In this document: positions 5,751 through 64,000 of the stretch, in pieces
How positions within the stretch are numbered: the first letter of the stretch is position 1
Layout of the letters: every line of letters begins with the position of its first letter
Source of the DNA: a virus
Lineage: Duplodnaviria > Caudoviricetes
Strand: one strand, 5' to 3'
IMG/VR virus record: IMGVR_UViG_3300010885_031309
DNA: 64,000 nt
The notes under the pieces: generated by a model
Seen by the model: the letters and a program-made list of their open reading frames with translations, nothing else
What the model was told of the DNA's origin: nothing
Database searches by the model: none
Made by a program: the position numbers and the translations under genes

Positions 5751-6498
5751 TTATATTTGAACTGGACCTAAATCTGAATGTTTCAACAGAAATGTAAGTG
5801 CTAATTTTTCGTTATATAGTGTAATGTGAAGTCTAGAGGGAGTGTTAACATAATTATGTTCTACGAATTTTTCTTCTGAGCGATAATAAGAAAAATCCCA
5901 ATCAACGCCCTGTACAAAATTGTCAATTCGTAACTGTTCAACTAACTTTAAGCAGTCAGTGACTTCTACATTATAGATACAATAGGTAATCATAGCCAAT
6001 TAAAAGTAAATGCGGTAGCTGTTTCGTCATCAAGTAGATAGATACGCAGATTAAATTCGCTTACTTCCCAACACCATTTTTTATTGAAATAGTCTTTAGA
6101 TGCATCATAAAAATCAAGTTCGCAACTTGGTCCCCATGTGTTCCAACACCACACTCTCCAATTACAAAAGATTTCATTTCTATCAGATACTTTCGGGCTA
6201 TATACAAACGGAACAGAAACAAAAAACTTGAATTTACCGTATGCTTTATGTCTTTTGTCTAATGTTGTAAGTGCAAATTCTTTTTTCATGTCCATCTTAA
6301 ACTAAACGCTGTAACATCGTGTTCATCATCAAATGAGAACTCATATGCATTGCCATACTGAAAGCAATCTGCCTGATAATTTGTTATAGACCAATTTCCA
6401 CGACAATTATCTCTGCACCAATTCATAATGTGTTTTAGTTGTCCAAACTCAACTGTAACATTAACTTGTGTGCTGATAGTGTTCAACATTAACGCCAC
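5751..6498 (-). CDS. Three more members of the F.LRW small paralogue family (5751-5999, 5990-6295, 6286-6498)
   Basis: C-termini TFLLKHS, AFTFNWL, AFSLRWT; W(C) motif in two. Confidence 0.65.
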
Positions 6499-53916: not shown

Positions 53917-54900
53917 CTATAATTTGCAGCTTTCGCATTGTGATTCATCATCTTGTGTCATTTCTGTTGAGGTAGTAAACTGAACTACATTATCAGCTTC
54001 AGACAACCCTTTCTTAGCGCCCATCTTATTGATCAAACTATAATATACGGTTTTTCCACCCCAGTAGTTATACAACATAAGATTCTTTGCTACTAGCGTG
54101 GCTGGAACCTTATTACCTTCATAATGAGCGGGATTATAGAAAGTATTAGTACTAATACTCTGATCTACATATGCGGCTAGCACTGCCGCAGTCTTTAGAT
54201 AATCAAGACAGTCGTTTTGATCCCACATCAATTGATACTTGTTCTTTAGTCGCTTGTACTCTGGTACGACTTGAACAAAGCTTCCTGCTTTGCTTTCTTT
54301 TACACTGACCAGTTCCATAGGCATTTCAATGCCATTAGTGCTGTTCAATACTACACTAGAACTTTCAACAGGGGCGATTGCGAGAAGCACAGCATTACGA
54401 ATGCCAGACTTTAGTAACCGACTGCGTAACGGCTCCCAATCTAGACTTGGCGTAAAATCGGTTAGATCATTAACACCTTCTGCTCTACGCTCCCACGGGA
54501 AAACACCACGGCCATACCAGGTGTGTTCGCTACGAGCACATGCGCCTCGTTCCTCTGCTAGTTCAATACTAGCTTCAGTTAAGTAATATGCCTGATGTTC
54601 TATAAACTTTTTTGTTATTGCTAATCCTTCAGAAGAACCGTAAGTGAGGTTTCTTTTAGCCAGAAAATATGCTAAGTTGGTAATACCGATACCCAATGGT
54701 TCGAAATCACGATTAGCTAGTTCACTTTGAATGCTTAGAAAGTCTTGATAATTTAGTAGATTACTCAATGAACGAACTAATATACGGCAAGCTTTACGCA
54801 TATCTTGTGGATTTCGAAAAGCACCCCAATTGATACTCCCAAGAGTACAAAGAGCCACTCTACCACCTTCATTAATACATTCTTTTTTTACTATTTTCAT
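53917..54900 (-). CDS. nrdA: NrdA C-terminal fragment (piece 3) with short non-RNR N-terminal tag
   Basis: MKIVKKECINEG + GRVALCTLGSINW...AIAPVESSS...STN...KTVYY...CESCKL. Confidence 0.92.
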   Translation of the reverse strand: MKIVKKECINEGGRVALCTLGSINWGAFRNPQDMRKACRILVRSLSNLLNYQDFLSIQSELANRDFEPLGIGITNLAYFLAKRNLTYGSSEGLAITKKFIEHQAYYLTEASIELAEERGACARSEHTWYGRGVFPWERRAEGVNDLTDFTPSLDWEPLRSRLLKSGIRNAVLLAIAPVESSSVVLNSTNGIEMPMELVSVKESKAGSFVQVVPEYKRLKNKYQLMWDQNDCLDYLKTAAVLAAYVDQSISTNTFYNPAHYEGNKVPATLVAKNLMLYNYWGGKTVYYSLINKMGAKKGLSEADNVVQFTTSTEMTQDDESQCESCKL

Positions 54901-55593
54901 TTATTTTTCCTTATTTTTACAATTTTCAAAATGCCATCTTTTCATCTGACTAATTCCGCCAAATAATCCACAGTGCAGGCATTCTATTTTTTCTCTAGGT
55001 CCTCTAAGATTATTTTTATGAGATTCTGATTTGGGTTTTCTCATATTACGCTTATGCTGTTCAGATTTAGGAACACCTTTGGTAGACTCTGAAATTGAGT
55101 TTGCCATTTTTAGTAAAGAGTTTTTTGATAATTTTCTGCCGGTGGATGATGCTACCCTTTTCATTCTCAGTTCATTGGCTTTTGTATTGCCATATATTTC
55201 TTCATAAGTTTTACCTTTAGAAGAACTCTCAACACCCCACATTGGATTTTTATCTCCAGACATGTCTCTATTGACGATGCCTTTTATATAATTTTCACAC
55301 ATAGACGTATCGCCACCATCGCCAGATTCAGGTCTTATGTTAGCCCACTCATTACTTTCTACTATGTTCCATAGATTGCTGTAATAAATTCCCCATTCCT
55401 TCAATTCTTCCGTAGTCTGACATTCTCTGAGAATCTCAGTAGTAACATCATTACCGTGTTTGTTGATATGATTACACCAGTATGTTCCAGAACCCTGATA
55501 CTTGAACGGGTCTTGGGTAGTTTTACCTAAATACTTTAGTCCAGTAGTATTGTGAGTTTTCTTGTATAGATACGATAATTTATGTGTTTTCAT
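54901..55593 (-). mobile_element. GIY-YIG (Seg-like) endonuclease inserted in nrdA
   Basis: YLY...KYLGKT...YQGSG...WAN; NPMWG; stop abuts piece 3 ATG. Confidence 0.85.
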
Positions 55594-55742
55594 TGGTATC
55601 CCTTGTCAATTTTTCTACTCTATCTATCCATTCAGTTAGATTCCGTAGAATTTCAGAGAGAGAGGCTTCTTATTCCTATTTTCAAATAAATGTTTATTTT
55701 TCTCTCTCCACTCTAAAACTTCTCTTGGTATATAATATTCGC

Positions 55743-56030
55743 TCATACCAATAAGTTCTCAATATCATCATCTTCAGTCAACTCACGAACTTTTTTACGG
55801 GTACCGTCAGTCAGCAATACTTTATGTTCGCCTCTCAACGTAACTTCTTGTCCATCATCTAGCGTCAATTTTAATGTGCCCTCGTCTTCTAGTCGCTGAA
55901 ATGGCTTAGTTGGAAGAAGAATTTCGCAGTTGTGAACGAGAATGTTGTTGGCAAAAAAACAGTGGGTATCTTCAACTGTTATGTCGTATACATCTGTGGG
56001 CTCTACCTGAACTTTTCTAATTTTTATCAT
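55743..56030 (-). CDS. nrdA: NrdA piece 2: split-intein C part (55929-56030) + 17-aa RNR segment (55878-55928) + intein-like tail
   Basis: VYDITVEDTHCFFANNILVHN|CEILLPTKPFQRLEDEG|TLKLTLDDGQEVTLRGEHKVLL... Confidence 0.9.
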   Translation of the reverse strand: MIKIRKVQVEPTDVYDITVEDTHCFFANNILVHNCEILLPTKPFQRLEDEGTLKLTLDDGQEVTLRGEHKVLLTDGTRKKVRELTEDDDIENLLV

Positions 56031-56031
56031 G

Positions 56032-57027
56032 TTATACCTTTATTTTTCCTGGGACATAGTGATCATAAGTTTTAATGAATTCTTCTATGTTGGTTATACG
56101 GATGTTATTAATGCCGTCATTATACCATCGATGTTTGCTTGATTCAATCGACAGTTTTTCTTTTTGTGAGTTGCTTCTGTGATAAGGATTGTATTTTATG
56201 TTAGTTCCAATATGCTTATTAACTTCGTCAACCAGATCGTTGAAAGATTGATAGTTGTTTTCTATCCACTTTAGTGAAATTTTCTTGAACTCACCAAACT
56301 CTTTAGACATTTCTATTTTCAATATGTTCAGTTTCAAGTGCTCATCTTCTGTGGCTTTAGCAACACACTGCCATAATCTTTCTCTTCGATCTTGTGTAAG
56401 CTCTTTGTAGTTGTTATTGTTGGATCCACGTTGTGATTTTCTATTTTCAGTCTTTGTTGGGGATGGCACCCCCTTACTATGATGCACCCATTCTCCAGAT
56501 AGTACTTTTTCATGATTTACTGACACTGATCCCATACTTTCGCGAGTTATAGCGTCAACGACTGGCATCATTCCTCTTCTTGCTTTGCTTATGCTTTCGT
56601 TTCCTATTTTTCTAAGATGTTCCATTTGTGTAAGTAACTCACGATCAACATCTGACAGATTTACTTGTCTAGCATGATTGCTAACTGCTTTAGTAAAGAA
56701 AAACTGTAGCGCCGATCCCGCTGAGTACTCATAACGAGTGCCTTTGTAGATTTCATAAAGATAATAATGACACATCAAGTGCTCCGCAAAAGTTAGTAGC
56801 ACGATATTTTCTTTACTATTTGGATTGCCATCTAAATGGCCCATTGGGCCTTTTCTCTTTCTGTTTTTGAAAAGAAAGTCTGGAACTACATGATGCTTTT
56901 CGTAATAGAAATCTCTACCCTTGACTCTGTTCTCTGAACGAGCGTTATCAATTATTTCTTTATATTTCTGTTTATACATACGAATGTCTCCATACGTATT
57001 TATTTCGGCAATCAAACTTCTGAACAT
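56032..57027 (-). mobile_element. HNH endonuclease between the split-intein halves
   Basis: EKHHVVP...N..ENIVLLT..EH..CH. Confidence 0.85.
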
Positions 57028-59924
57028 AACATGTCCGTCTCTACTAATTCATCTGCTCTAACATATCCGCGATTTTTAGTGAAAATTAAGTGATCGCCTG
57101 TGCATCTGATTATATTTCCTTGTTCATCTTCAACCTCGTACAATTCTGTGACTGTTTTTGTTTTTGCAGCGGCAGTCACGGATTTCCATATTACTGAATC
57201 CTGATCATAGCTCTTTACTTTTGAGTCCGTAAGAGCACCTAATTCCCACCGTTCTACAGCACTTTCAAGAGACATTTTTTCAACTTGTCCATTAGAATGT
57301 AGAAACTCTAATTGACTGTCGCCGGTCAGACAGCACAGATTACTCATGTAAATTGGATCTTCTTCAGTGTCAAATGGTCCTTGATTGATAACATTGTCAA
57401 TATTGACTAGGTAAATACGACCAGTGTCTGTGCGTTCTTTTAGGATGCCATTCTTGAATATCTCTTCAGCAGATAACACTTTCTTTTTCTTGGTAGAATC
57501 TGATTCATACTTAACATATAATTCTTCAAAACGTTCTACATTACGATAGTATGCTTCGTACAAATCTGGCACTTCATGTGGATCAAACAGTGTAATATTC
57601 TCTCCATTCTTATATCGACGCCAGAACAACTTACTGACGACGACACCATAATCTAATTGTCTGACACGGGTTTCTTCTGTGCCTTGGTTATTCTTTAGCA
57701 CAATGAAGTCTTCAAATTGATAATGCCAAATTGGAAGATATACTGTGCAACTTGCGTTGCGGATTCCACCCTGGGAGCAACTACGCAGATCACCATACCA
57801 CTTCTTTAAGAATGGAATAAGTCCGGTATGTTTGATCTCGCCATTGCGAATAGGTGCACCGAGTGGACGAATACGCCCAATCTCTAGACCAATGCCAGCA
57901 CGTTTGCTAGCATACTTTGCCATCATTTCGCCAGACGCGAATATACTGTCTAGAGTATCGTCTGCACTAATAAGTACGCAATTGTGCACACCTACCCCAT
58001 TAACGGTAAATGATTGAACATTATTTACTTGCAAATCATAAACCATAATCCCATTGGCTTTTCTTTTACTTACTTCTCTTACTTTAGCAAAATACATTCC
58101 ATCGACAACTTTAACATATGGATTTTTATTTCTTTTTTTGCTAATACCTTCAAGTCTAGAATTCTTATCTACCTTTCGTAAAAAGTCTAAATTACCAGAT
58201 AGTCCAAGGGTTATTTTATAACTATCATGTCTGGTAATAATAGTCTTCTCGAATCTATCCTTAGATTTAATCCTATTGTTCTTGTATTCATTTATCTTTT
58301 CTGCTGTCACAACACCAAGAACTGGGGATAGATCACACCTAATCATAATCTGTGATATTTGTCGAATTAGGTGTCGGTTAGACATACCAAGACTTAGCCC
58401 ATTTTTTGTAACACAACCGTCGCCACGAATAACTCCTATTAGGAAATTCTCTTGATTTTCGCGGGTTGCTTTCATTACAATATCATGCAAAGTCTTTGTG
58501 TTAAACCCATTCCCAACTAACCCAACTAGCAATGTTTTAAAAGCAGCGGAATGCACTGTAATAGAGGTTGAATTATCTGCTCGAATGTGCTTTGAAATGG
58601 GCAAATCAAAGTTACTTTTAATGATTTGTTCTATGTCTTCTAAAAACATTGTTTCTTTTGAAGAAAGCGTAAATCCTACAGAAAAATCTGTATTAGCATG
58701 ACCTTCCGCTGCATAATAACCCAGCAATCTAAATAAGTCAGAATTTAGAATAACCTCATCTGAACATTTCAACACTTTATCGTCATATTCGCCTGATCTT
58801 TTGGAATGGTCTACGGTTGGTTTCCTCAAGAATCCATCATCATCGACCTGAAGATAATCTAGAATCTGTGGGAATTCAACAGAAATTTTAATTTTCTCTC
58901 GTGGATCGATATATTTTGAATATGGTATTTGAACAAAATCACCCTTCTCAATATTATCTGCACGGGTCCACTGAGGCACACTGTACTTTTTCTTATTAAA
59001 AGACAATGGATGAGATTTTTTTAGTGCCATAATCAAATGGTCTTCGGTAGATTCGAACTCACCATTCAATGAATAAACATTATTAATTTTTACCAAATAT
59101 TCTTGAGGTGCAGATTGTGCTCTCGTAGCAATTACAGGCTGATATGAACCTTCATGTGTTAATACTAAATCTCCTACATTTATGGATTCAATATTTTTTT
59201 CACCATCAACAGTCCACACTCTTTGACCAGCAGGAAAACAACTAGAAAACTGCTTAGTATTAGTGCCAAGACCAGCCAACACAGGTGTAGCCAATGTGAA
59301 ATGCCCTTCACTAGCACATTCATAATATTCTTTAACATACTTTAATCTTTTATCTTTTGGCTCAGCGTGAAATGCTGTAGCTGCTGCAATTGCATAGCGT
59401 ACTTGTGGAGTCTCGTAAATTTTTCCGGTGCTACGATTTTGCACTAGATATTTTTCACACAGTTGAGCAATCGCCGCATATGTATATTTTTCATCTTTGC
59501 TGTGATCTAAAAACAGATCAATAATATTCCATTCTTCTTCAGTATACCAGTCTAATAAATCTGGTGTATACATTCCGTGTTCAACATTTTTCTTTACAAT
59601 ATCCCATAATTTAGATGGGGCGTATTCACCATAGACTTCTTTGCGTAGCATTGAGTTGCGTTGACGACCAGCAACATACTGATAATTTACATTATTTACT
59701 TCAGTGTCTTCACTTTCATCAATTAGACCTACCATAGCTTGAAGCAACAGTTGGTCAATCGTTTCTGTGGTCATATTATCGTGAAACTGAAGTTTAGCTC
59801 TGAGTTCAATCATTGATGGTGATACACCATCAATGCCTTGGCAGCAGTTGCGTACTTGTCTTTGGATTTTTGAAATATCTAGTGATTCTTTATCGCCGTT
59901 TCTCTTGATAATACTTATATTCAT
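57012..59924 (-). CDS. nrdA: NrdA piece 1: ATP-cone + catalytic N-part with LAGLIDADG cis-intein (57981-59240) and C-terminal split-intein N part (57015-57332)
   Basis: IIKRNG ATP cone; KQFSS|CFPAG...VHN|CVLI; MSNLC|CLTGDS...CTGDH. Confidence 0.95.
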   Translation of the reverse strand: MNISIIKRNGDKESLDISKIQRQVRNCCQGIDGVSPSMIELRAKLQFHDNMTTETIDQLLLQAMVGLIDESEDTEVNNVNYQYVAGRQRNSMLRKEVYGEYAPSKLWDIVKKNVEHGMYTPDLLDWYTEEEWNIIDLFLDHSKDEKYTYAAIAQLCEKYLVQNRSTGKIYETPQVRYAIAAATAFHAEPKDKRLKYVKEYYECASEGHFTLATPVLAGLGTNTKQFSSCFPAGQRVWTVDGEKNIESINVGDLVLTHEGSYQPVIATRAQSAPQEYLVKINNVYSLNGEFESTEDHLIMALKKSHPLSFNKKKYSVPQWTRADNIEKGDFVQIPYSKYIDPREKIKISVEFPQILDYLQVDDDGFLRKPTVDHSKRSGEYDDKVLKCSDEVILNSDLFRLLGYYAAEGHANTDFSVGFTLSSKETMFLEDIEQIIKSNFDLPISKHIRADNSTSITVHSAAFKTLLVGLVGNGFNTKTLHDIVMKATRENQENFLIGVIRGDGCVTKNGLSLGMSNRHLIRQISQIMIRCDLSPVLGVVTAEKINEYKNNRIKSKDRFEKTIITRHDSYKITLGLSGNLDFLRKVDKNSRLEGISKKRNKNPYVKVVDGMYFAKVREVSKRKANGIMVYDLQVNNVQSFTVNGVGVHNCVLISADDTLDSIFASGEMMAKYASKRAGIGLEIGRIRPLGAPIRNGEIKHTGLIPFLKKWYGDLRSCSQGGIRNASCTVYLPIWHYQFEDFIVLKNNQGTEETRVRQLDYGVVVSKLFWRRYKNGENITLFDPHEVPDLYEAYYRNVERFEELYVKYESDSTKKKKVLSAEEIFKNGILKERTDTGRIYLVNIDNVINQGPFDTEEDPIYMSNLCCLTGDSQLEFLHSNGQVEKMSLESAVERWELGALTDSKVKSYDQDSVIWKSVTAAAKTKTVTELYEVEDEQGNIIRCTGDHLIFTKNRGYVRADELVETDMLCSEV

Positions 59925-60296: not shown

Positions 60297-61907
60297 TCAG
60301 CCTACGGTACCTCGTCCTAGCGATATGGTTGTATCCACCGAAACACAAGATCCAGATTTATCACTGGCAATTACAGAAATATCATATGGTTGACCTCTTC
60401 TTGCTGGAATTCCAGAAAAAGTAATACTAGCATAATTAATTGGTCCAACTTTAGTGGTGCTGATAGTAGTTGTAATGTCAGAGGGTAAGATTGAACTGGG
60501 TGATAATTGCAGTGATGTAGCGTTTGCTACTGATACAACTCCGTTAAATCTTACTCCGGCTCGCATAGAAGCTAGCGTGCTGCTAGTCAGTGACGCTAAT
60601 CCAATAGATGGAACTGCACACTGAGACCCAAGTACAGTGCCTGAACTCGCGCTAATATCATTTTTAGTAGCTGCAACTAATTTAGGAGTAGTAACTGGAT
60701 CATTAGTAGCATTTACTTTGATGTTAAACGATTGATTTGATGTGGTTGGTGTTCCGGTAACAGTTATTACAAAGTTGTTTCCGCTTTTAGCTCCGGTCCA
60801 ATTTAGACCATTTGGAAGAGTACCTGCTACTATGTTGGCAGAAGTTGCGTTTTTAACTAGAATAGTTCCATTATATTGAATGCCTCGCTGAAAAATTGAA
60901 TTTCCAGATTGTTTACTCAATGTATTACTAGTTATAGAGTCAACCGTTGGAGCTGGCGCACCTGCGGCCAAAGTTACACCACTTGCTATTACCGCCGTGC
61001 TAGTACTTTCGCTGCAACTGGATGATGATTTATTGTAGGCAGTGACACTAATTGAATATGACTGTGCGGCAACAGTTGGAGTTCCTGATACTGTCAAAAC
61101 AAGATTAGTTCCACTGATACCACTGACTATATTAATGCCAGTTGGCACTCCACTGAATATGACTCTAGTGGCATTTTGTATAATTACGATTTCACGGTAT
61201 GCAAGACCCTGTTGAAATATATTATTTGAAAGTTGTGAAATAACAGGAGTAGAACATGGAATCAAATCAACAGTTCCAGAACTAATACTACTCGGAGTAG
61301 TAGTATTGTTATAAGATACGGTTGCACAATTTGTTCCGGCATTTGATGCAGTCAATGTAATATTATAGTTTTGTGAGCCCGTTGTTGGAGTTCCACTTAG
61401 CTTAAATTCATAATTTGATCCAACTCTGTTACCAGTTGCAGTTACTCCTGTTGGCAGACCACCCAATGCGGCAGTTGTTGCATTATTTACGGTAAAACTA
61501 AGATTAGTTGCTTGTCCTAGCGTAAATATAAGTGACGGCAAGCTGAGTGTAGGAGCCGGACCACATGCAGTAGCAGTGACTGCTACGTATACTGATTTAA
61601 GTGTTACAGTGTCTTGCGGTGCATGAGAGCTACTACAGGTGGGATTTCTAGCAGAGAGTTTAACTTCATAGGTGCCGGCAGTAGTTGGTGACCCAGAAAT
61701 TGTAACTTGATGACTCATACTAGATAATGATTGAACTCCACTACTACGTAGTCCGGGTGGTAGTCCAGATATACTAAAGTCAGTTTTAGATGTATTATCA
61801 ACACCGATTATAAATTCAACTGAATTATTAATTGTCAATCTACTGGGCATTTTGCGAGTGTCCCACGATGGTCTGAAACACGGCGTGGTACCTGTAATTC
61901 TACTCAT
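60297..61907 (-). CDS. Ig-like repeat virion protein
   Basis: Repeated sgLPtG...tisGTPT units. Confidence 0.75.
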   Translation of the reverse strand: MSRITGTTPCFRPSWDTRKMPSRLTINNSVEFIIGVDNTSKTDFSISGLPPGLRSSGVQSLSSMSHQVTISGSPTTAGTYEVKLSARNPTCSSSHAPQDTVTLKSVYVAVTATACGPAPTLSLPSLIFTLGQATNLSFTVNNATTAALGGLPTGVTATGNRVGSNYEFKLSGTPTTGSQNYNITLTASNAGTNCATVSYNNTTTPSSISSGTVDLIPCSTPVISQLSNNIFQQGLAYREIVIIQNATRVIFSGVPTGINIVSGISGTNLVLTVSGTPTVAAQSYSISVTAYNKSSSSCSESTSTAVIASGVTLAAGAPAPTVDSITSNTLSKQSGNSIFQRGIQYNGTILVKNATSANIVAGTLPNGLNWTGAKSGNNFVITVTGTPTTSNQSFNIKVNATNDPVTTPKLVAATKNDISASSGTVLGSQCAVPSIGLASLTSSTLASMRAGVRFNGVVSVANATSLQLSPSSILPSDITTTISTTKVGPINYASITFSGIPARRGQPYDISVIASDKSGSCVSVDTTISLGRGTVG

Positions 61908-61961
61908 ATTTTTTTCCTTTTATTAATCTATTTAATAGCACATAGAATTAAATAACTTAAG

Positions 61962-64000
61962 TTATTTAACGGTTCCAACTGCCACAGATACATTATTTTT
62001 TGTTTTTATTGTGCATCCAGCAGCAGAAATATCTGGGTTATTTGTGGCATTTAATCTAATATCATATCTTTGATTAGCAGTTGTTGGTCGCCCAGCAAAG
62101 TTAAGTATTACTGTACCTCCGTTAGCGGATGAAGTTGTGCTAGATACTAGTCTAATTCCAGTTACACTCAATGAAGTTATAAAATTAAAACTTGCAGAAG
62201 TGGCGTTTGTTATAGTAACCGTCCCGGTATAATTAACTCCAACCTTAAAGTCATTTGGTAATAATTGTTCAACGATTGGGTCAGCACATTTATTTGGTTC
62301 AGTGACGCTACCTGCTCCAATACTAAATGGAGCAGGTAATGCAGATGTTGTAAATTCACAAATATTAGATGCAGATATTAATGCATCCCATGATTGATTT
62401 AATGTACTTGGAGTTCCACTTAGTGTAAATTCATAATTTGAACCAACAACTGCGCCTGTGCTGCTTATTCCAGTTGGTAGACCACTAATACTAGCAGTAG
62501 TTGCATTGTTAACTACAATTTTTATTGGTCCATATGAGACTCCGACTTTGAATGTAGAAGTCTCTATTCTGGATAGAACTGACGGCAAAGCACAATTGCT
62601 TACAACACTCAGAGTAATTCCGCACCAGCCACGGGTCCAGGCAGTAGTCGTAATCCCGTTTTTCGTACTGGAAGAATAATTCATTGAATATCCAGCCGAG
62701 GTAATATTTATTGTGGCTTTTTGCCCAACTTTTATTAGACCAGCATGAACTGCTGCCATAGCAATATTAGAGTCGTCTGTGTAAGGCCCACTTCCCCATA
62801 CAGTACCACCAGTGGTTGCTCCAGTTACCTCAACCGATGCATAGTTTGTTTTACAGATACTGGACTTAGCAACTTGCCCACTTCCAAAACTGGAATTTGT
62901 AATTGATGTAGTAACTTTTCCACCGCCGCATGCGTTTGATGCATTTACTCTTATATCCCAAGACTGCAACTCTTGAGTTGGAGTGCCACTGAGTATAAAT
63001 TCATAATTTGCTCCTGTTCTGGAACCAACTGATGATATTCCAGTTGGCAGACCCGAGATAGTAGCAGTGGTTGCATTAAAAATTACTAATTTGCCGCTGT
63101 ATGCTCTGTCTTTAGTAAAAGTTATGTTGTCTAAAGAAGAAGATAAACTTGGAGTATCGCATAATGGAGGTGGATTTACTTTTCCATTTCCCCCGCTGAG
63201 ATTAGTTGAGGTTGTAGTAAGCTTGCCTGATCCGCAATTATTGGTTGCATCAATAGTAATAGCATAAGTTTCATCAACTTTTGTTGGGGTTCCGCTTATA
63301 GTAAAAACATAATCTGATCCAACTCGTTGTCCTGTTTGACTAATTCCAGTAGGAAGTCCACTAATAGTAGCACTGGTTGCGTTGTTAACTGTGATTATTC
63401 CATTTTGATAAGTTTGTCCCTGAACAAACACATTTGGATTAATAGTCTGCGACGATGAAGCAGAACACAAGTCTGGCGGCAATACAGTTCCTGCACCAAG
63501 TTGAACTGAAGTTAGAGCAGTAGTGATTTTCCCCCCTCCACATGCATTAGTAATATTTGCTATAATGGTATATGCTTTAGAGTTGGCGCTAAGATCTGGA
63601 GTGCCACTCAGAGTAAATTCATAATTTGCCCCAGATCTAGCTCCGCTTGCAGTTACTCCAGTTGGGAATCCACTAATAGTTGCACTAGTCGCATTGTTAA
63701 TAATTATTTTAGTCTCAGCAGCTACTGGAACTCCAACCTTAAATGTTCCTGTAAATATTTGTGGTGATGGGATATCACATTGTGGAGCAGCTAACACAGA
63801 TATAGGAATGTTTAATCTAGTGGTCGTGGGAGTTTTATCTGCTGAACATGCATTTGTTGCATCTATTACTAAATTATATTGTTTACCCGCAGCAGACAAA
63901 TCAGGAGTACCGCTCAATGTATATTCAATATTTGCTCCAACACGAGTGAAATTACCGATGTTCACCCCAGGCGGAAATGTAGATCCTCCAGCCCCGGTAA
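61962..64000 (-). CDS. Ig-like repeat protein with LCCL domain, 5'-truncated by window end
   Basis: NAT.A.I.GLPTG...LSGTP repeats; VWGSGPYTDDSNIAMAAVHAGLI; frame stays open beyond the GTG at 63965. Confidence 0.8.
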   Translation of the reverse strand, partial: TGAGGSTFPPGVNIGNFTRVGANIEYTLSGTPDLSAAGKQYNLVIDATNACSADKTPTTTRLNIPISVLAAPQCDIPSPQIFTGTFKVGVPVAAETKIIINNATSATISGFPTGVTASGARSGANYEFTLSGTPDLSANSKAYTIIANITNACGGGKITTALTSVQLGAGTVLPPDLCSASSSQTINPNVFVQGQTYQNGIITVNNATSATISGLPTGISQTGQRVGSDYVFTISGTPTKVDETYAITIDATNNCGSGKLTTTSTNLSGGNGKVNPPPLCDTPSLSSSLDNITFTKDRAYSGKLVIFNATTATISGLPTGISSVGSRTGANYEFILSGTPTQELQSWDIRVNASNACGGGKVTTSITNSSFGSGQVAKSSICKTNYASVEVTGATTGGTVWGSGPYTDDSNIAMAAVHAGLIKVGQKATINITSAGYSMNYSSSTKNGITTTAWTRGWCGITLSVVSNCALPSVLSRIETSTFKVGVSYGPIKIVVNNATTASISGLPTGISSTGAVVGSNYEFTLSGTPSTLNQSWDALISASNICEFTTSALPAPFSIGAGSVTEPNKCADPIVEQLLPNDFKVGVNYTGTVTITNATSASFNFITSLSVTGIRLVSSTTSSANGGTVILNFAGRPTTANQRYDIRLNATNNPDISAAGCTIKTKNNVSVAVGTVK

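Follow-up and report, generated by a model that had tools for sequence, protein, structure and literature searches.

Locus structure of a broken nrdA gene

The window, by which we mean the whole stretch of 64,000 nucleotides (nt) analysed here (IMG/VR virus record IMGVR_UViG_3300010885_031309; Duplodnaviria, Caudoviricetes), carries nrdA, the gene for the alpha subunit of a class Ia ribonucleotide reductase (RNR), as three separate coding pieces. Five consecutive open reading frames (ORFs) occupy the minus strand from 53917 to 59924 and comprise the three nrdA pieces and two interspersed homing-endonuclease genes. The RNR chain is interrupted first by a cis intein, then by a split intein whose N-terminal and C-terminal halves (IntN and IntC) lie on pieces 1 and 2, and finally by a second break, between pieces 2 and 3, where an acidic tail and a basic head that are not RNR sequence flank the cut. 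An earlier sequence-only reading had taken this tail and head for the relic of an intein that no longer splices, and homology, purifying selection and constant co-occurrence of the two uphold that interpretation. The nrdA pieces, their RNR (extein) segments and the two extensions are as follows, with lengths in amino acids (aa).

57012-59924, minus strand: piece 1, 970 aa, with Pfam matches to ATP-cone, RNR N-terminal, barrel, Hint and LAGLIDADG_3 domains
55743-56030, minus strand: piece 2, 95 aa, consisting of IntC, 17 RNR residues and the 44-aa tail
53917-54900, minus strand: piece 3, 327 aa, consisting of the 12-aa head and the rest of the barrel
59241-59924, minus strand: NrdA extein segment 1, piece 1 aa 1-228, ending ...QFSS at the equivalent of E. 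coli S224
57333-57980, minus strand: NrdA extein segment 2, piece 1 aa 649-864, from C225 to SNLC (N437, C439)
55878-55928, minus strand: NrdA extein segment 3, 17 aa equivalent to E. coli 440-456, including E441
53917-54864 (stop included), minus strand: NrdA extein segment 4, from G457 to the C-terminus, with C462, Y730, Y731 and CxxC
55746-55877, minus strand: 44-aa acidic tail, a relic of the IntN end with the block B His kept and block A absent, followed by its stop codon at 55743-55745
54865-54900, minus strand: 12-aa basic head MKIVKKECINEG on piece 3, similar to the opening strand of an IntC but lacking its terminal HN

The three-piece arrangement given by the sequence-only reading was recovered in full, with all five ORFs in place. 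Pfam matches on pieces 1 and 3 (PF03477, PF00317 and PF02867), together with matches to the E. coli R1 structure at E values of 1e-122 and 1e-59, identified the product as a class Ia RNR alpha subunit. Extein segment 1 holds the ATP-cone and all-alpha domains (Pfam ATP-cone, Ribonuc_red_lgN), and Ribonuc_red_lgC matches piece 1 at aa 648-865, that is, at extein segment 2. E. coli numbering of piece 1 was assigned through the orthologue at L002, which has no cis intein and in which QFSSC ends with C225 and SNLC corresponds to 436-439 (L labels denote related loci or contigs, including the isolated phages KP13-7, L001, and Aeh1, L070; P labels denote metagenome proteins). Piece 3 aligned without gaps to E. 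coli R1 454-733 and to positions 223-522 of the Ribonuc_red_lgC profile, with G13 equivalent to G457, C18 to C462 and Y286/Y287 to Y730/Y731, and its C-terminus reads CESCKL. This alignment bears out the description of piece 3 as a head without HN followed by GRVALCTL (C462), YY and CxxC, and the alignments of the 95-aa ORF likewise agree with its division into an IntC ending VHN, 17 RNR residues with E441 and a 44-aa tail.

All catalytic and radical-transfer residues are kept (C225, N437, C439, E441, C462, Y730, Y731 and the C-terminal Cys pair). In relatives without the second break the residues of extein segment 3 run straight into the barrel. At the break itself no RNR residue has been lost or duplicated while both new ends are extended, indicating that the chain is cut exactly between 456 and 457. 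The locus structure is no assembly artefact; 0.92-0.97 of the window's words were present in sequencing runs from two freshwater samples of different studies, although the sample richest in them may be the window's own source. A near-identity DNA search among isolated phages gave no match to the window.

Intein homology and selection at the second break

The 95-aa ORF has approximately 25 full-length orthologues in metagenomes (62-84% identity). When the tails were scanned alone, 20 of 23 matched PF14890 (Intein_splicing) at positions 51-92 of its 155 (best E value 8e-4). With hhalign, the profile of the tails and that of the IntNs from the adjacent split intein gave an ungapped alignment of tail 5-42 with IntN 65-102 of 106 (E value 2.3e-4; 18% identity), in which the block B histidines are superposed and both sequences end 4-5 residues further on, so that the tail stops where the split IntN stops. 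A profile built from the tail only retrieved 126 matches among 1.84 billion representative proteins, with E values down to 1e-10 outside the family. All ten of the matches sampled carry Pfam intein domains, the matched stretch lying within or largely overlapping the N-terminal intein domain, and in six of these it falls at PF14890 positions ~50-93. None of the 126 was a full-length IntN at the 456/457 site, the form that would bear direct witness to in-situ decay of a complete intein. Against PDB sequences the tail profile gave weak matches only (E > 0.5), and a search with the 95-aa ORF placed the tail start on gp41-1 48-67 and the tail body on NpuDnaB 61-94 among solved structures.

The nearest live relatives of the tail are split IntNs in UvsW-type helicases. 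The window tail matches the final 47 residues of one such UvsW IntN, a genuine split half, with 44% identity over 41 aa (E value 3e-9), and the partner IntC adjoins that IntN on the same contig. The tail is much nearer to this UvsW family than to the adjacent IntN of the window, and is not a local duplication. Pfam, hhalign, the profile search and the UvsW identity thus agree with the earlier suggestion that the tail resembles the second half of an IntN without the block A Cys, and judged by these comparisons it is homologous to the N-terminal splicing region of inteins, corresponding to the last ~40 residues of an IntN, between the strand that precedes block B and the natural split site.

Piece 3 has its own Shine-Dalgarno sequence (AAGGA) and ATG, and its head resembles the starts of IntCs such as MKIVKIEKNG (KP13-7), MKITRITKIS (L075) and MIKIRKVQVE (the window's own). 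The features expected of a functional intein, namely a block A nucleophile or its class 2/3 substitute on one side and blocks F and G, a terminal Asn and a +1 nucleophile on the other, were not found at the second break. The relic is without blocks A, F and G and the terminal Asn, the tail beginning at about position 51 of PF14890 and the head being 12-14 residues long, and the residues at the junctions vary among E, T or I after ...DEG and among PK, GR or PM before [IV][AS]LCTL. As all catalytic intein parts are gone from the relic, nothing should be spliced at this position.

The proportions of synonymous (pS) and non-synonymous (pN) differences were calculated by the Nei-Gojobori method over 14 distinct loci, with the following values.

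Tail: pS 0.82, pN 0.155, pN/pS 0.19
Head: pS 0.42, pN 0.06, pN/pS 0.14
15 extein codons before the tail: pS 0.79, pN 0.19, pN/pS 0.24
First 100 barrel codons of piece 3: pS 0.81, pN 0.19, pN/pS 0.23

Synonymous sites were near saturation, and by pN/pS the constraint on tail and head is as strong as that on the catalytic barrel. Fourteen tail positions, the block B His among them, are invariant in 23 sequences, and the head is conserved as MK[IL][IV]KKE[CT] in every locus with a tail. Across 13 distinct tail/head pairs the charge of the tail ranges from -3 to -6 and that of the head from +2 to +5. Both extensions are translated and are under purifying selection at the protein level.

The tail accompanies a split intein at C439 in the window, L002, L003 and L006-9, occurs with no intein at C439 (SNLC running straight into the extein) in L005, L010-15, L026-27 and L031-38, and follows a contiguous intein at C439 in P0069; many other relatives have the split intein at C439 and an unbroken loop. 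From tail stop to head start the gap varies among loci from -4 nt (ATGA overlap in L031/L032) to 1409 nt, and contains varied endonuclease genes, unidentified ORFs or none. Tail and head are therefore independent of the split intein and of the endonuclease gene, and the fact that they outlive the latter argues that they serve the enzyme.

Splicing, docking and competing explanations

The remaining features of the locus are the two inteins, the two endonuclease genes and the spacer at the second break.

57981-59240, minus strand: cis intein, 420 aa (piece 1 aa 229-648), inserted between S224 and C225; Hint, Hint_2 and LAGLIDADG_3 matches
57015-57332, minus strand: IntN of the split intein, 106 aa at the end of piece 1, Cys1 directly after C439; PF14890
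55929-56030, minus strand: IntC of the split intein, 34 aa, ending ...LVHN before Cys+1; PF14890 positions 125-155
56032-57027, minus strand: free-standing HNH-like homing endonuclease between IntN and IntC, 331 aa; phrog_655, phrog_12434
54901-55593, minus strand: free-standing GIY-YIG-type homing endonuclease in the second break, 230 aa; phrog_314 (E value 3.8e-14)
55594-55742, minus strand: spacer upstream of the GIY-YIG gene, 149 nt; Rfam scan negative

The cis intein shows Cys1, TEDH, two LAGLIDADG-like motifs (LLGYYAAEG and LIGVIRGDG) and a GVHN end followed by Cys+1. These motifs mark it as an ordinary LAGLIDADG intein of class 1, placed at a catalytic Cys, and Pfam, motifs and the E. 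coli R1 alignment are in accord with its earlier placement just before the C225 equivalent. The first break carries Cys1 and block B on the IntN ORF and HN and Cys+1 on a later ORF, and is located at an endonuclease insertion site, with a free-standing endonuclease gene between the halves. Related loci supplied 20 more distinct orthologous IntNs at the C439 site, of which 19 are 103-109 aa long. The IntC aligns to the C-termini of the gp41-1, NpuDnaB and NrdJ-1 inteins, and among solved structures the IntN comes closest to the NrdJ-1 split intein (PDB 8ubs, E value 2.5e-11). Boundary alignment and PF14890 concur that piece 1 ends in SNLC followed by a 106-aa IntN. The further claim of a compact new split-intein pair did not hold, as 106 + 34 aa is an ordinary size and the IntN is clearly related to the characterised NrdJ-1. 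The pair has the hallmarks of a live intein, from which we infer that pieces 1 and 2 are spliced in trans.

According to Dassa et al. 2009, inteins in NrdA lie just before the thiyl Cys and those in NrdJ one residue later (PMC2677866). The first break of the window resembles their fractured genes in its order of IntN, free-standing endonuclease gene and IntC and in its acidic IntN and basic IntC start (PMC2677866), but its split intein, though in NrdA, uses the NrdJ point one residue past the thiyl Cys, whereas the NrdA loci of Dassa et al. are interrupted one residue earlier. The second break shares the gene layout of those loci, but its intein halves are reduced to approximately 44 + 10 residues and are incapable of splicing. 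The closest match in an isolated phage is Klebsiella phage KP13-7 (OP617745; 65% over IntC and extein), where SNLC is likewise followed by this split intein, its halves separated by a GIY-YIG gene. KP13-7 differs in that its loop 441-462 is unbroken and that it carries a further true split intein elsewhere and one more interruption upstream.

The nrdA gene of this jumbo phage (L001:2977-8507) lies in at least four coding pieces, most of them annotated as hypothetical proteins; one break, after ...KSCSQG, holds an HNH-like ORF and is a possible intron, and the further true split intein (between IMPGE and TSSQ) encloses another endonuclease gene and has an IntC that starts MKIVKIEKNG and ends SHN. 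Elsewhere, P0069 (488 aa) runs from a contiguous cis intein at C439/440 through the extein to the tail, and piece 3 of L003 (6413-7858) is 481 aa long with an extra intein inside the barrel.

The same NrdA loop is split in phage Aeh1 (nrdA-a/mobE/nrdA-b; Friedrich et al. 2007; Crona et al. 2010, PMC3045599), where C431 and E433 lie on NrdA-a and C31 on NrdA-b. Aeh1 and the window have in common a class Ia NrdA broken in the E441-C462 loop, a free-standing endonuclease gene in the break and oppositely charged non-RNR extensions. In Aeh1 the fragments are not joined covalently, as should also hold for the window; the basic C-tail and acidic N-tail were found on the mature proteins by mass spectrometry, and they are essential for activity and (a/b)2 formation but dispensable for the a/b heterodimer (PMC3045599). 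The sequence-only reading had Aeh1 NrdA assembling non-covalently via its tails, which is correct for activity and for (a/b)2, whereas the a/b heterodimer forms without them. The authors found no database matches for the Aeh1 tails and speculated that these are degenerate split-intein remnants (PMC3045599). Compared with the window, the polarity in Aeh1 is reversed (tail basic, head acidic), the cut lies about six residues earlier and the tail has no detectable intein similarity, while the window tail belongs to a different family with demonstrable intein homology; the window enzyme, unlike that of Aeh1, would also need a cis and a trans splice. Both live inteins of the window are of known kinds, and the third interruption is a variant of the Aeh1 solution. 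Charged extensions were also proposed as assembly aids in the T4 topoisomerase gp39/gp60 split by mobA (PMC3045599), which is a different enzyme with no intein homology reported.

The E441-C462 loop of NrdA also carries a second tail family, in which a GIY-YIG gene separates a basic tail (..KVKK..F..) from a strongly acidic head (L030:3273-5344); it is widespread in metagenomes and is represented there by ten proteins (P0027, P0031, P0035, P0037, P0044, P0047, P0048, P0053, P0059 and P0063). The Aeh1 NrdA-a tail aligned ungapped and end to end with this type 2 family, a likeness that is suggestive only, and the BLASTP alignment of the Aeh1 NrdA-a end with a type 2 protein stopped short of the K-rich tail. 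One NrdA loop thus bears either of two tail systems among related phages, and it is in the window's type that intein ancestry is visible.

Assembly of split inteins begins with charge contacts that the C-terminal region of IntN makes with the start of IntC (10.1101/546465; PMC11766414; PMC2677866), examples being the charge zipper of gp41-1 (Beyer et al. 2019; 10.1101/546465) and the capture-and-collapse of Npu DnaE (Shah et al. 2013, as summarised in PMC11766414). The window relic keeps the same parts flanking the split site as the gp41-1 and Npu DnaE assembly region, the end of IntN and the start of IntC, and its charge polarity is that of the DnaE, NrdJ-1 and NrdA-2 split inteins (PMC2677866). 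In comparison with live split inteins it keeps neither the first half of IntN nor the final two thirds of IntC, and has no catalytic core. Since only the tail start aligns to the end of the gp41-1 strand before block B, part of the zipper strand may be absent.

Taken together, we consider it probable, at roughly three chances in four, that the locus encodes a working class Ia NrdA that needs a cis splice, a trans splice and a permanent break at 456/457 held by conserved intein remnants. The LAGLIDADG intein would splice in cis between S224 and C225, and the split intein (106-aa IntN, 34-aa IntC, Cys1, Cys+1) would then splice piece 1 to piece 2 in trans at C439-440. Between 456 and 457, within the surface loop that runs from E441 to C462, the chain would remain permanently open; there the acidic tail and basic head would re-form part of the HINT fold around its natural split site; this is proposed because the relic keeps the contact region flanking the split site and loses the catalytic halves. 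Through the re-formed HINT part, the spliced product of pieces 1 and 2 would more readily join piece 3 in an active (a/b)2, as happens with the unrelated tails of Aeh1. For the earlier scheme of one cis splice, one trans splice and one docking, the anatomy and the relic survived all tests, while non-covalent docking by the tails is suggested by their conservation and by the Aeh1 precedent, the break lying in the loop split in Aeh1, where the tails are essential.

Several points weigh against this interpretation. The relic keeps approximately 55 of the ~140 residues of a HINT domain, and the head, at 8-12 residues, is too short for statistics, its IntC origin being argued from position, charge and three resemblances. 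We infer the contact between tail and head and its importance for activity, and a complex prediction of the tail (piece 2 aa 49-95) with piece 3 (score 0.15, mark 0.32) returned no verdict and counts neither way. The Aeh1 heterodimer forms without tails, so that most of the binding energy may come from the RNR barrel, while the tails may affect dimerisation or active-site geometry and not docking as such. Finally, this is an uncultured freshwater phage, and only DNA runs of freshwater metagenomes hold its sequence.

The explanation that fares best among the alternatives is that tail and head are leftovers without a role in assembly. The fragments would then join via the RNR barrel, and the extensions would be either tolerated or of use to the endonuclease gene, as stop, start, ribosome-binding site or regulatory DNA. 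Besides the tail-free Aeh1 heterodimer (PMC3045599) and the complex prediction that lent docking no support, it could appeal to the lower synonymous divergence in the head, which may reflect a constraint on translation initiation. We nevertheless regard it as improbable. Leftovers are difficult to reconcile with a tail whose pN/pS is as low as that of the barrel at saturated synonymous sites and whose 14 invariant positions hold in all 23 sequences, with opposite charges in 13 of 13 pairs, or with intact tails and heads where the endonuclease gene has been lost, including the ATGA-overlap junction; and the Aeh1 tails are essential for activity (PMC3045599).

Healing of the second break by a group I intron with a GIY-YIG ORF, or by ribosomal bypassing, would remove tail and head from the mature enzyme. 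Group I introns with endonuclease ORFs are frequent in phage RNR genes, the tail, spacer and head of L002 amount to an intron-sized ~330 nt, and the sequence is known from DNA runs only. Permissive scans with Rfam intron models, however, gave no match in the window to E = 10, in keeping with the earlier failure to see a group I core at 55594-55742, nor in L002, L003 and L005 to E = 1; L002 and L003 have no endonuclease gene at the second break, and the region is contiguous there. Where relatives have no endonuclease gene, their spacer measures 124-161 nt or is missing (ATGA overlap), and the overlap in L031/L032 reduces the interval to ~170 nt of conserved codons. Change at the ends of the supposed intron is mostly synonymous, as in protein-coding sequence, and these ends are homologous to intein protein; piece 3 carries its own initiation signals; and the Aeh1 tails remain on the mature proteins (PMC3045599). 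RNA splicing and bypassing at the second break are consequently very unlikely.

Just as improbable is a very small, atypical split intein that still splices in trans. The invariant block B His of the tails and the conserved Cys or Thr of the head (KKEC / KKET) would suit it, and class 2 and 3 inteins manage without a nucleophile at position 1 (PMC11766414), but the extensions total ~55 residues, blocks A, F and G and the terminal Asn are absent, Pfam coverage is confined to 51-92 and neither junction has a conserved nucleophile. Finally, a decaying pseudogene in a phage relying on the host RNR or another enzyme might be expected of a gene battered by four selfish elements, and the related Campylobacter phage CPt10 is said to keep only a highly interrupted nrdA remnant (PMC3653736), yet this is scarcely credible given that every catalytic residue is present, all segments are under purifying selection, 13 distinct lineages share the broken architecture and intact genes for NrdB and glutaredoxin follow downstream of nrdA. 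The group I intron, bypassing, mini-intein and pseudogene readings were rejected on this evidence.

Possible mobility and wider occurrence of the remnant

The endonuclease genes that accompany nrdA breaks are of mixed type. The 331-aa ORF matched the phrog_655 homing endonucleases (E value 2.5e-12) and phrog_12434 (HNH), with a weak AHH match in Pfam, and is 50% identical to the equivalently placed ORF of L002. The 230-aa ORF had no Pfam match, and its N-terminus shares 36-40% identity with the GIY-YIG endonucleases that L030 and L033 carry in this break. These results substantiate the HNH gene proposed between pieces 1 and 2 and, together with phrog_314, the GIY-YIG gene before piece 3. The C-terminal half of Aeh1 mobE (L070:1948-2661, HNH) is 36-39% identical to that of endonucleases at both kinds of break, and mobE-like C-terminal halves occur in L033:5271-6044 and L030:3555-4289, whose N-terminal halves are GIY-YIG-like. 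This suggests that the endonucleases of the nrdA loop are modular and have in common a presumably DNA-binding C-terminal domain for one target. In L002 all that the 161-nt spacer still encodes is a 42-codon relic (6328-6456) similar to the Cys/His-rich C-terminal end of the GIY-YIG endonuclease in the window.

Within the 149-nt spacer of the window (55650-55735, minus strand) one frame without a start codon reads ..REVLEWREKNKHLF..., which nearly equals a 39-codon ORF (..KEVLEWREKSKHLF..) at L002:5885-6004. The L002 copy sits elsewhere than that of the window, between the HNH gene and the IntC ORF, and the stretch may be a small element travelling with endonuclease genes. Upstream of nrdA (60297-63965, minus strand) two large ORFs of 536 and 667 aa consist of ~90-aa repeat modules with the recurring motif ..NATSA.ISGLPTGI...G.NY.F.LSGTP.., and are probably Ig-like repeat surface or fibre proteins.

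The distribution of the broken loop was followed on a tree of 308 aligned columns downstream of the break, in which broken and unbroken alleles are intermixed. Parsimony required 9-10 changes, of which well-supported branches force at least four, against averages of 12.6-13.4 with shuffled labels; the tree reads presence states, in which gain and loss are indistinguishable. In one pair of near-identical sisters, 1311 nt of L007 (tail, two ORFs and head) replace 17 nt of the unbroken L051, and homology between the two stops and resumes within a few codons of the tail start and the head end. Tail, optional endonuclease gene and head are thus present or absent together, scattered over close nrdA alleles in the manner of an insertion/deletion cassette. 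The L007/L051 pair and the tree fit spread through gene conversion of the homing type, or loss when broken alleles recombine with unbroken ones.

Similar arrangements were found in two other phage genes. In L073 (335-2620), a UvsW-type helicase of a gut-metagenome phage is split in the loop before motif V. Its N-terminal fragment ends in a truncated IntN-like tail (YKITLEDD...KVKDLKETDEI) with no Cys1 and the His lost, followed by a 307-aa GIY-YIG gene and then by the head MKIKKIEHCG, after which the helicase resumes. In L071 (2-2171), a gp43-type DNA polymerase is broken inside motif C, between ...IGD and TDS.... The truncated IntN-like tail after ...IGD reads PYEITLENG...KKVSELTEFDDIII and precedes an endonuclease gene with a weak NUMOD3 match, and the C-terminal fragment starts at TDS with a TTG start codon and without an IntC-like head. 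A common endonuclease behind the NrdA, UvsW and polymerase relics was considered and rejected, since the L073 and L071 endonucleases showed no similarity to those of the nrdA breaks at E 1e-3, and a single shared cassette is accordingly unsupported by the endonuclease genes.

More speculatively, an IntN remnant, an optional endonuclease gene and an IntC remnant may together form a mobile gene-fracturing cassette with its own antidote, present in several phage genes and the source of Aeh1-like tails. We offer this as a tentative proposal that is more doubtful than our interpretation of the nrdA locus itself and has the odds somewhat against it. If true, half a HINT domain would act as a splicing-free heterodimerisation module that lets endonuclease genes settle in essential genes, and would represent a third route beside introns and inteins, seen in NrdA, in the UvsW-type helicase of L073 and possibly in the gp43 polymerase of L071. 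Such a docking module could then be portable to other split proteins.

In summary, no description of intein-derived tails on NrdA was found in the open-access literature, and the window supplies sequence evidence for an intein origin of such tails that had only been conjectured, by Crona et al. (PMC3045599). It provides a missing intermediate between protein trans-splicing and plain non-covalent assembly, and offers a setting in which to study the colonisation of essential genes by homing endonucleases. Annotation can easily mistake such nrdA pieces for hypothetical proteins or pseudogenes, KP13-7 being an example. The relic shows which part of a split intein survives when association alone matters, and predicts that the region flanking the split site is a self-sufficient docking module, making the family natural material for small, splicing-free, charge-complementary heterodimerisation tags.

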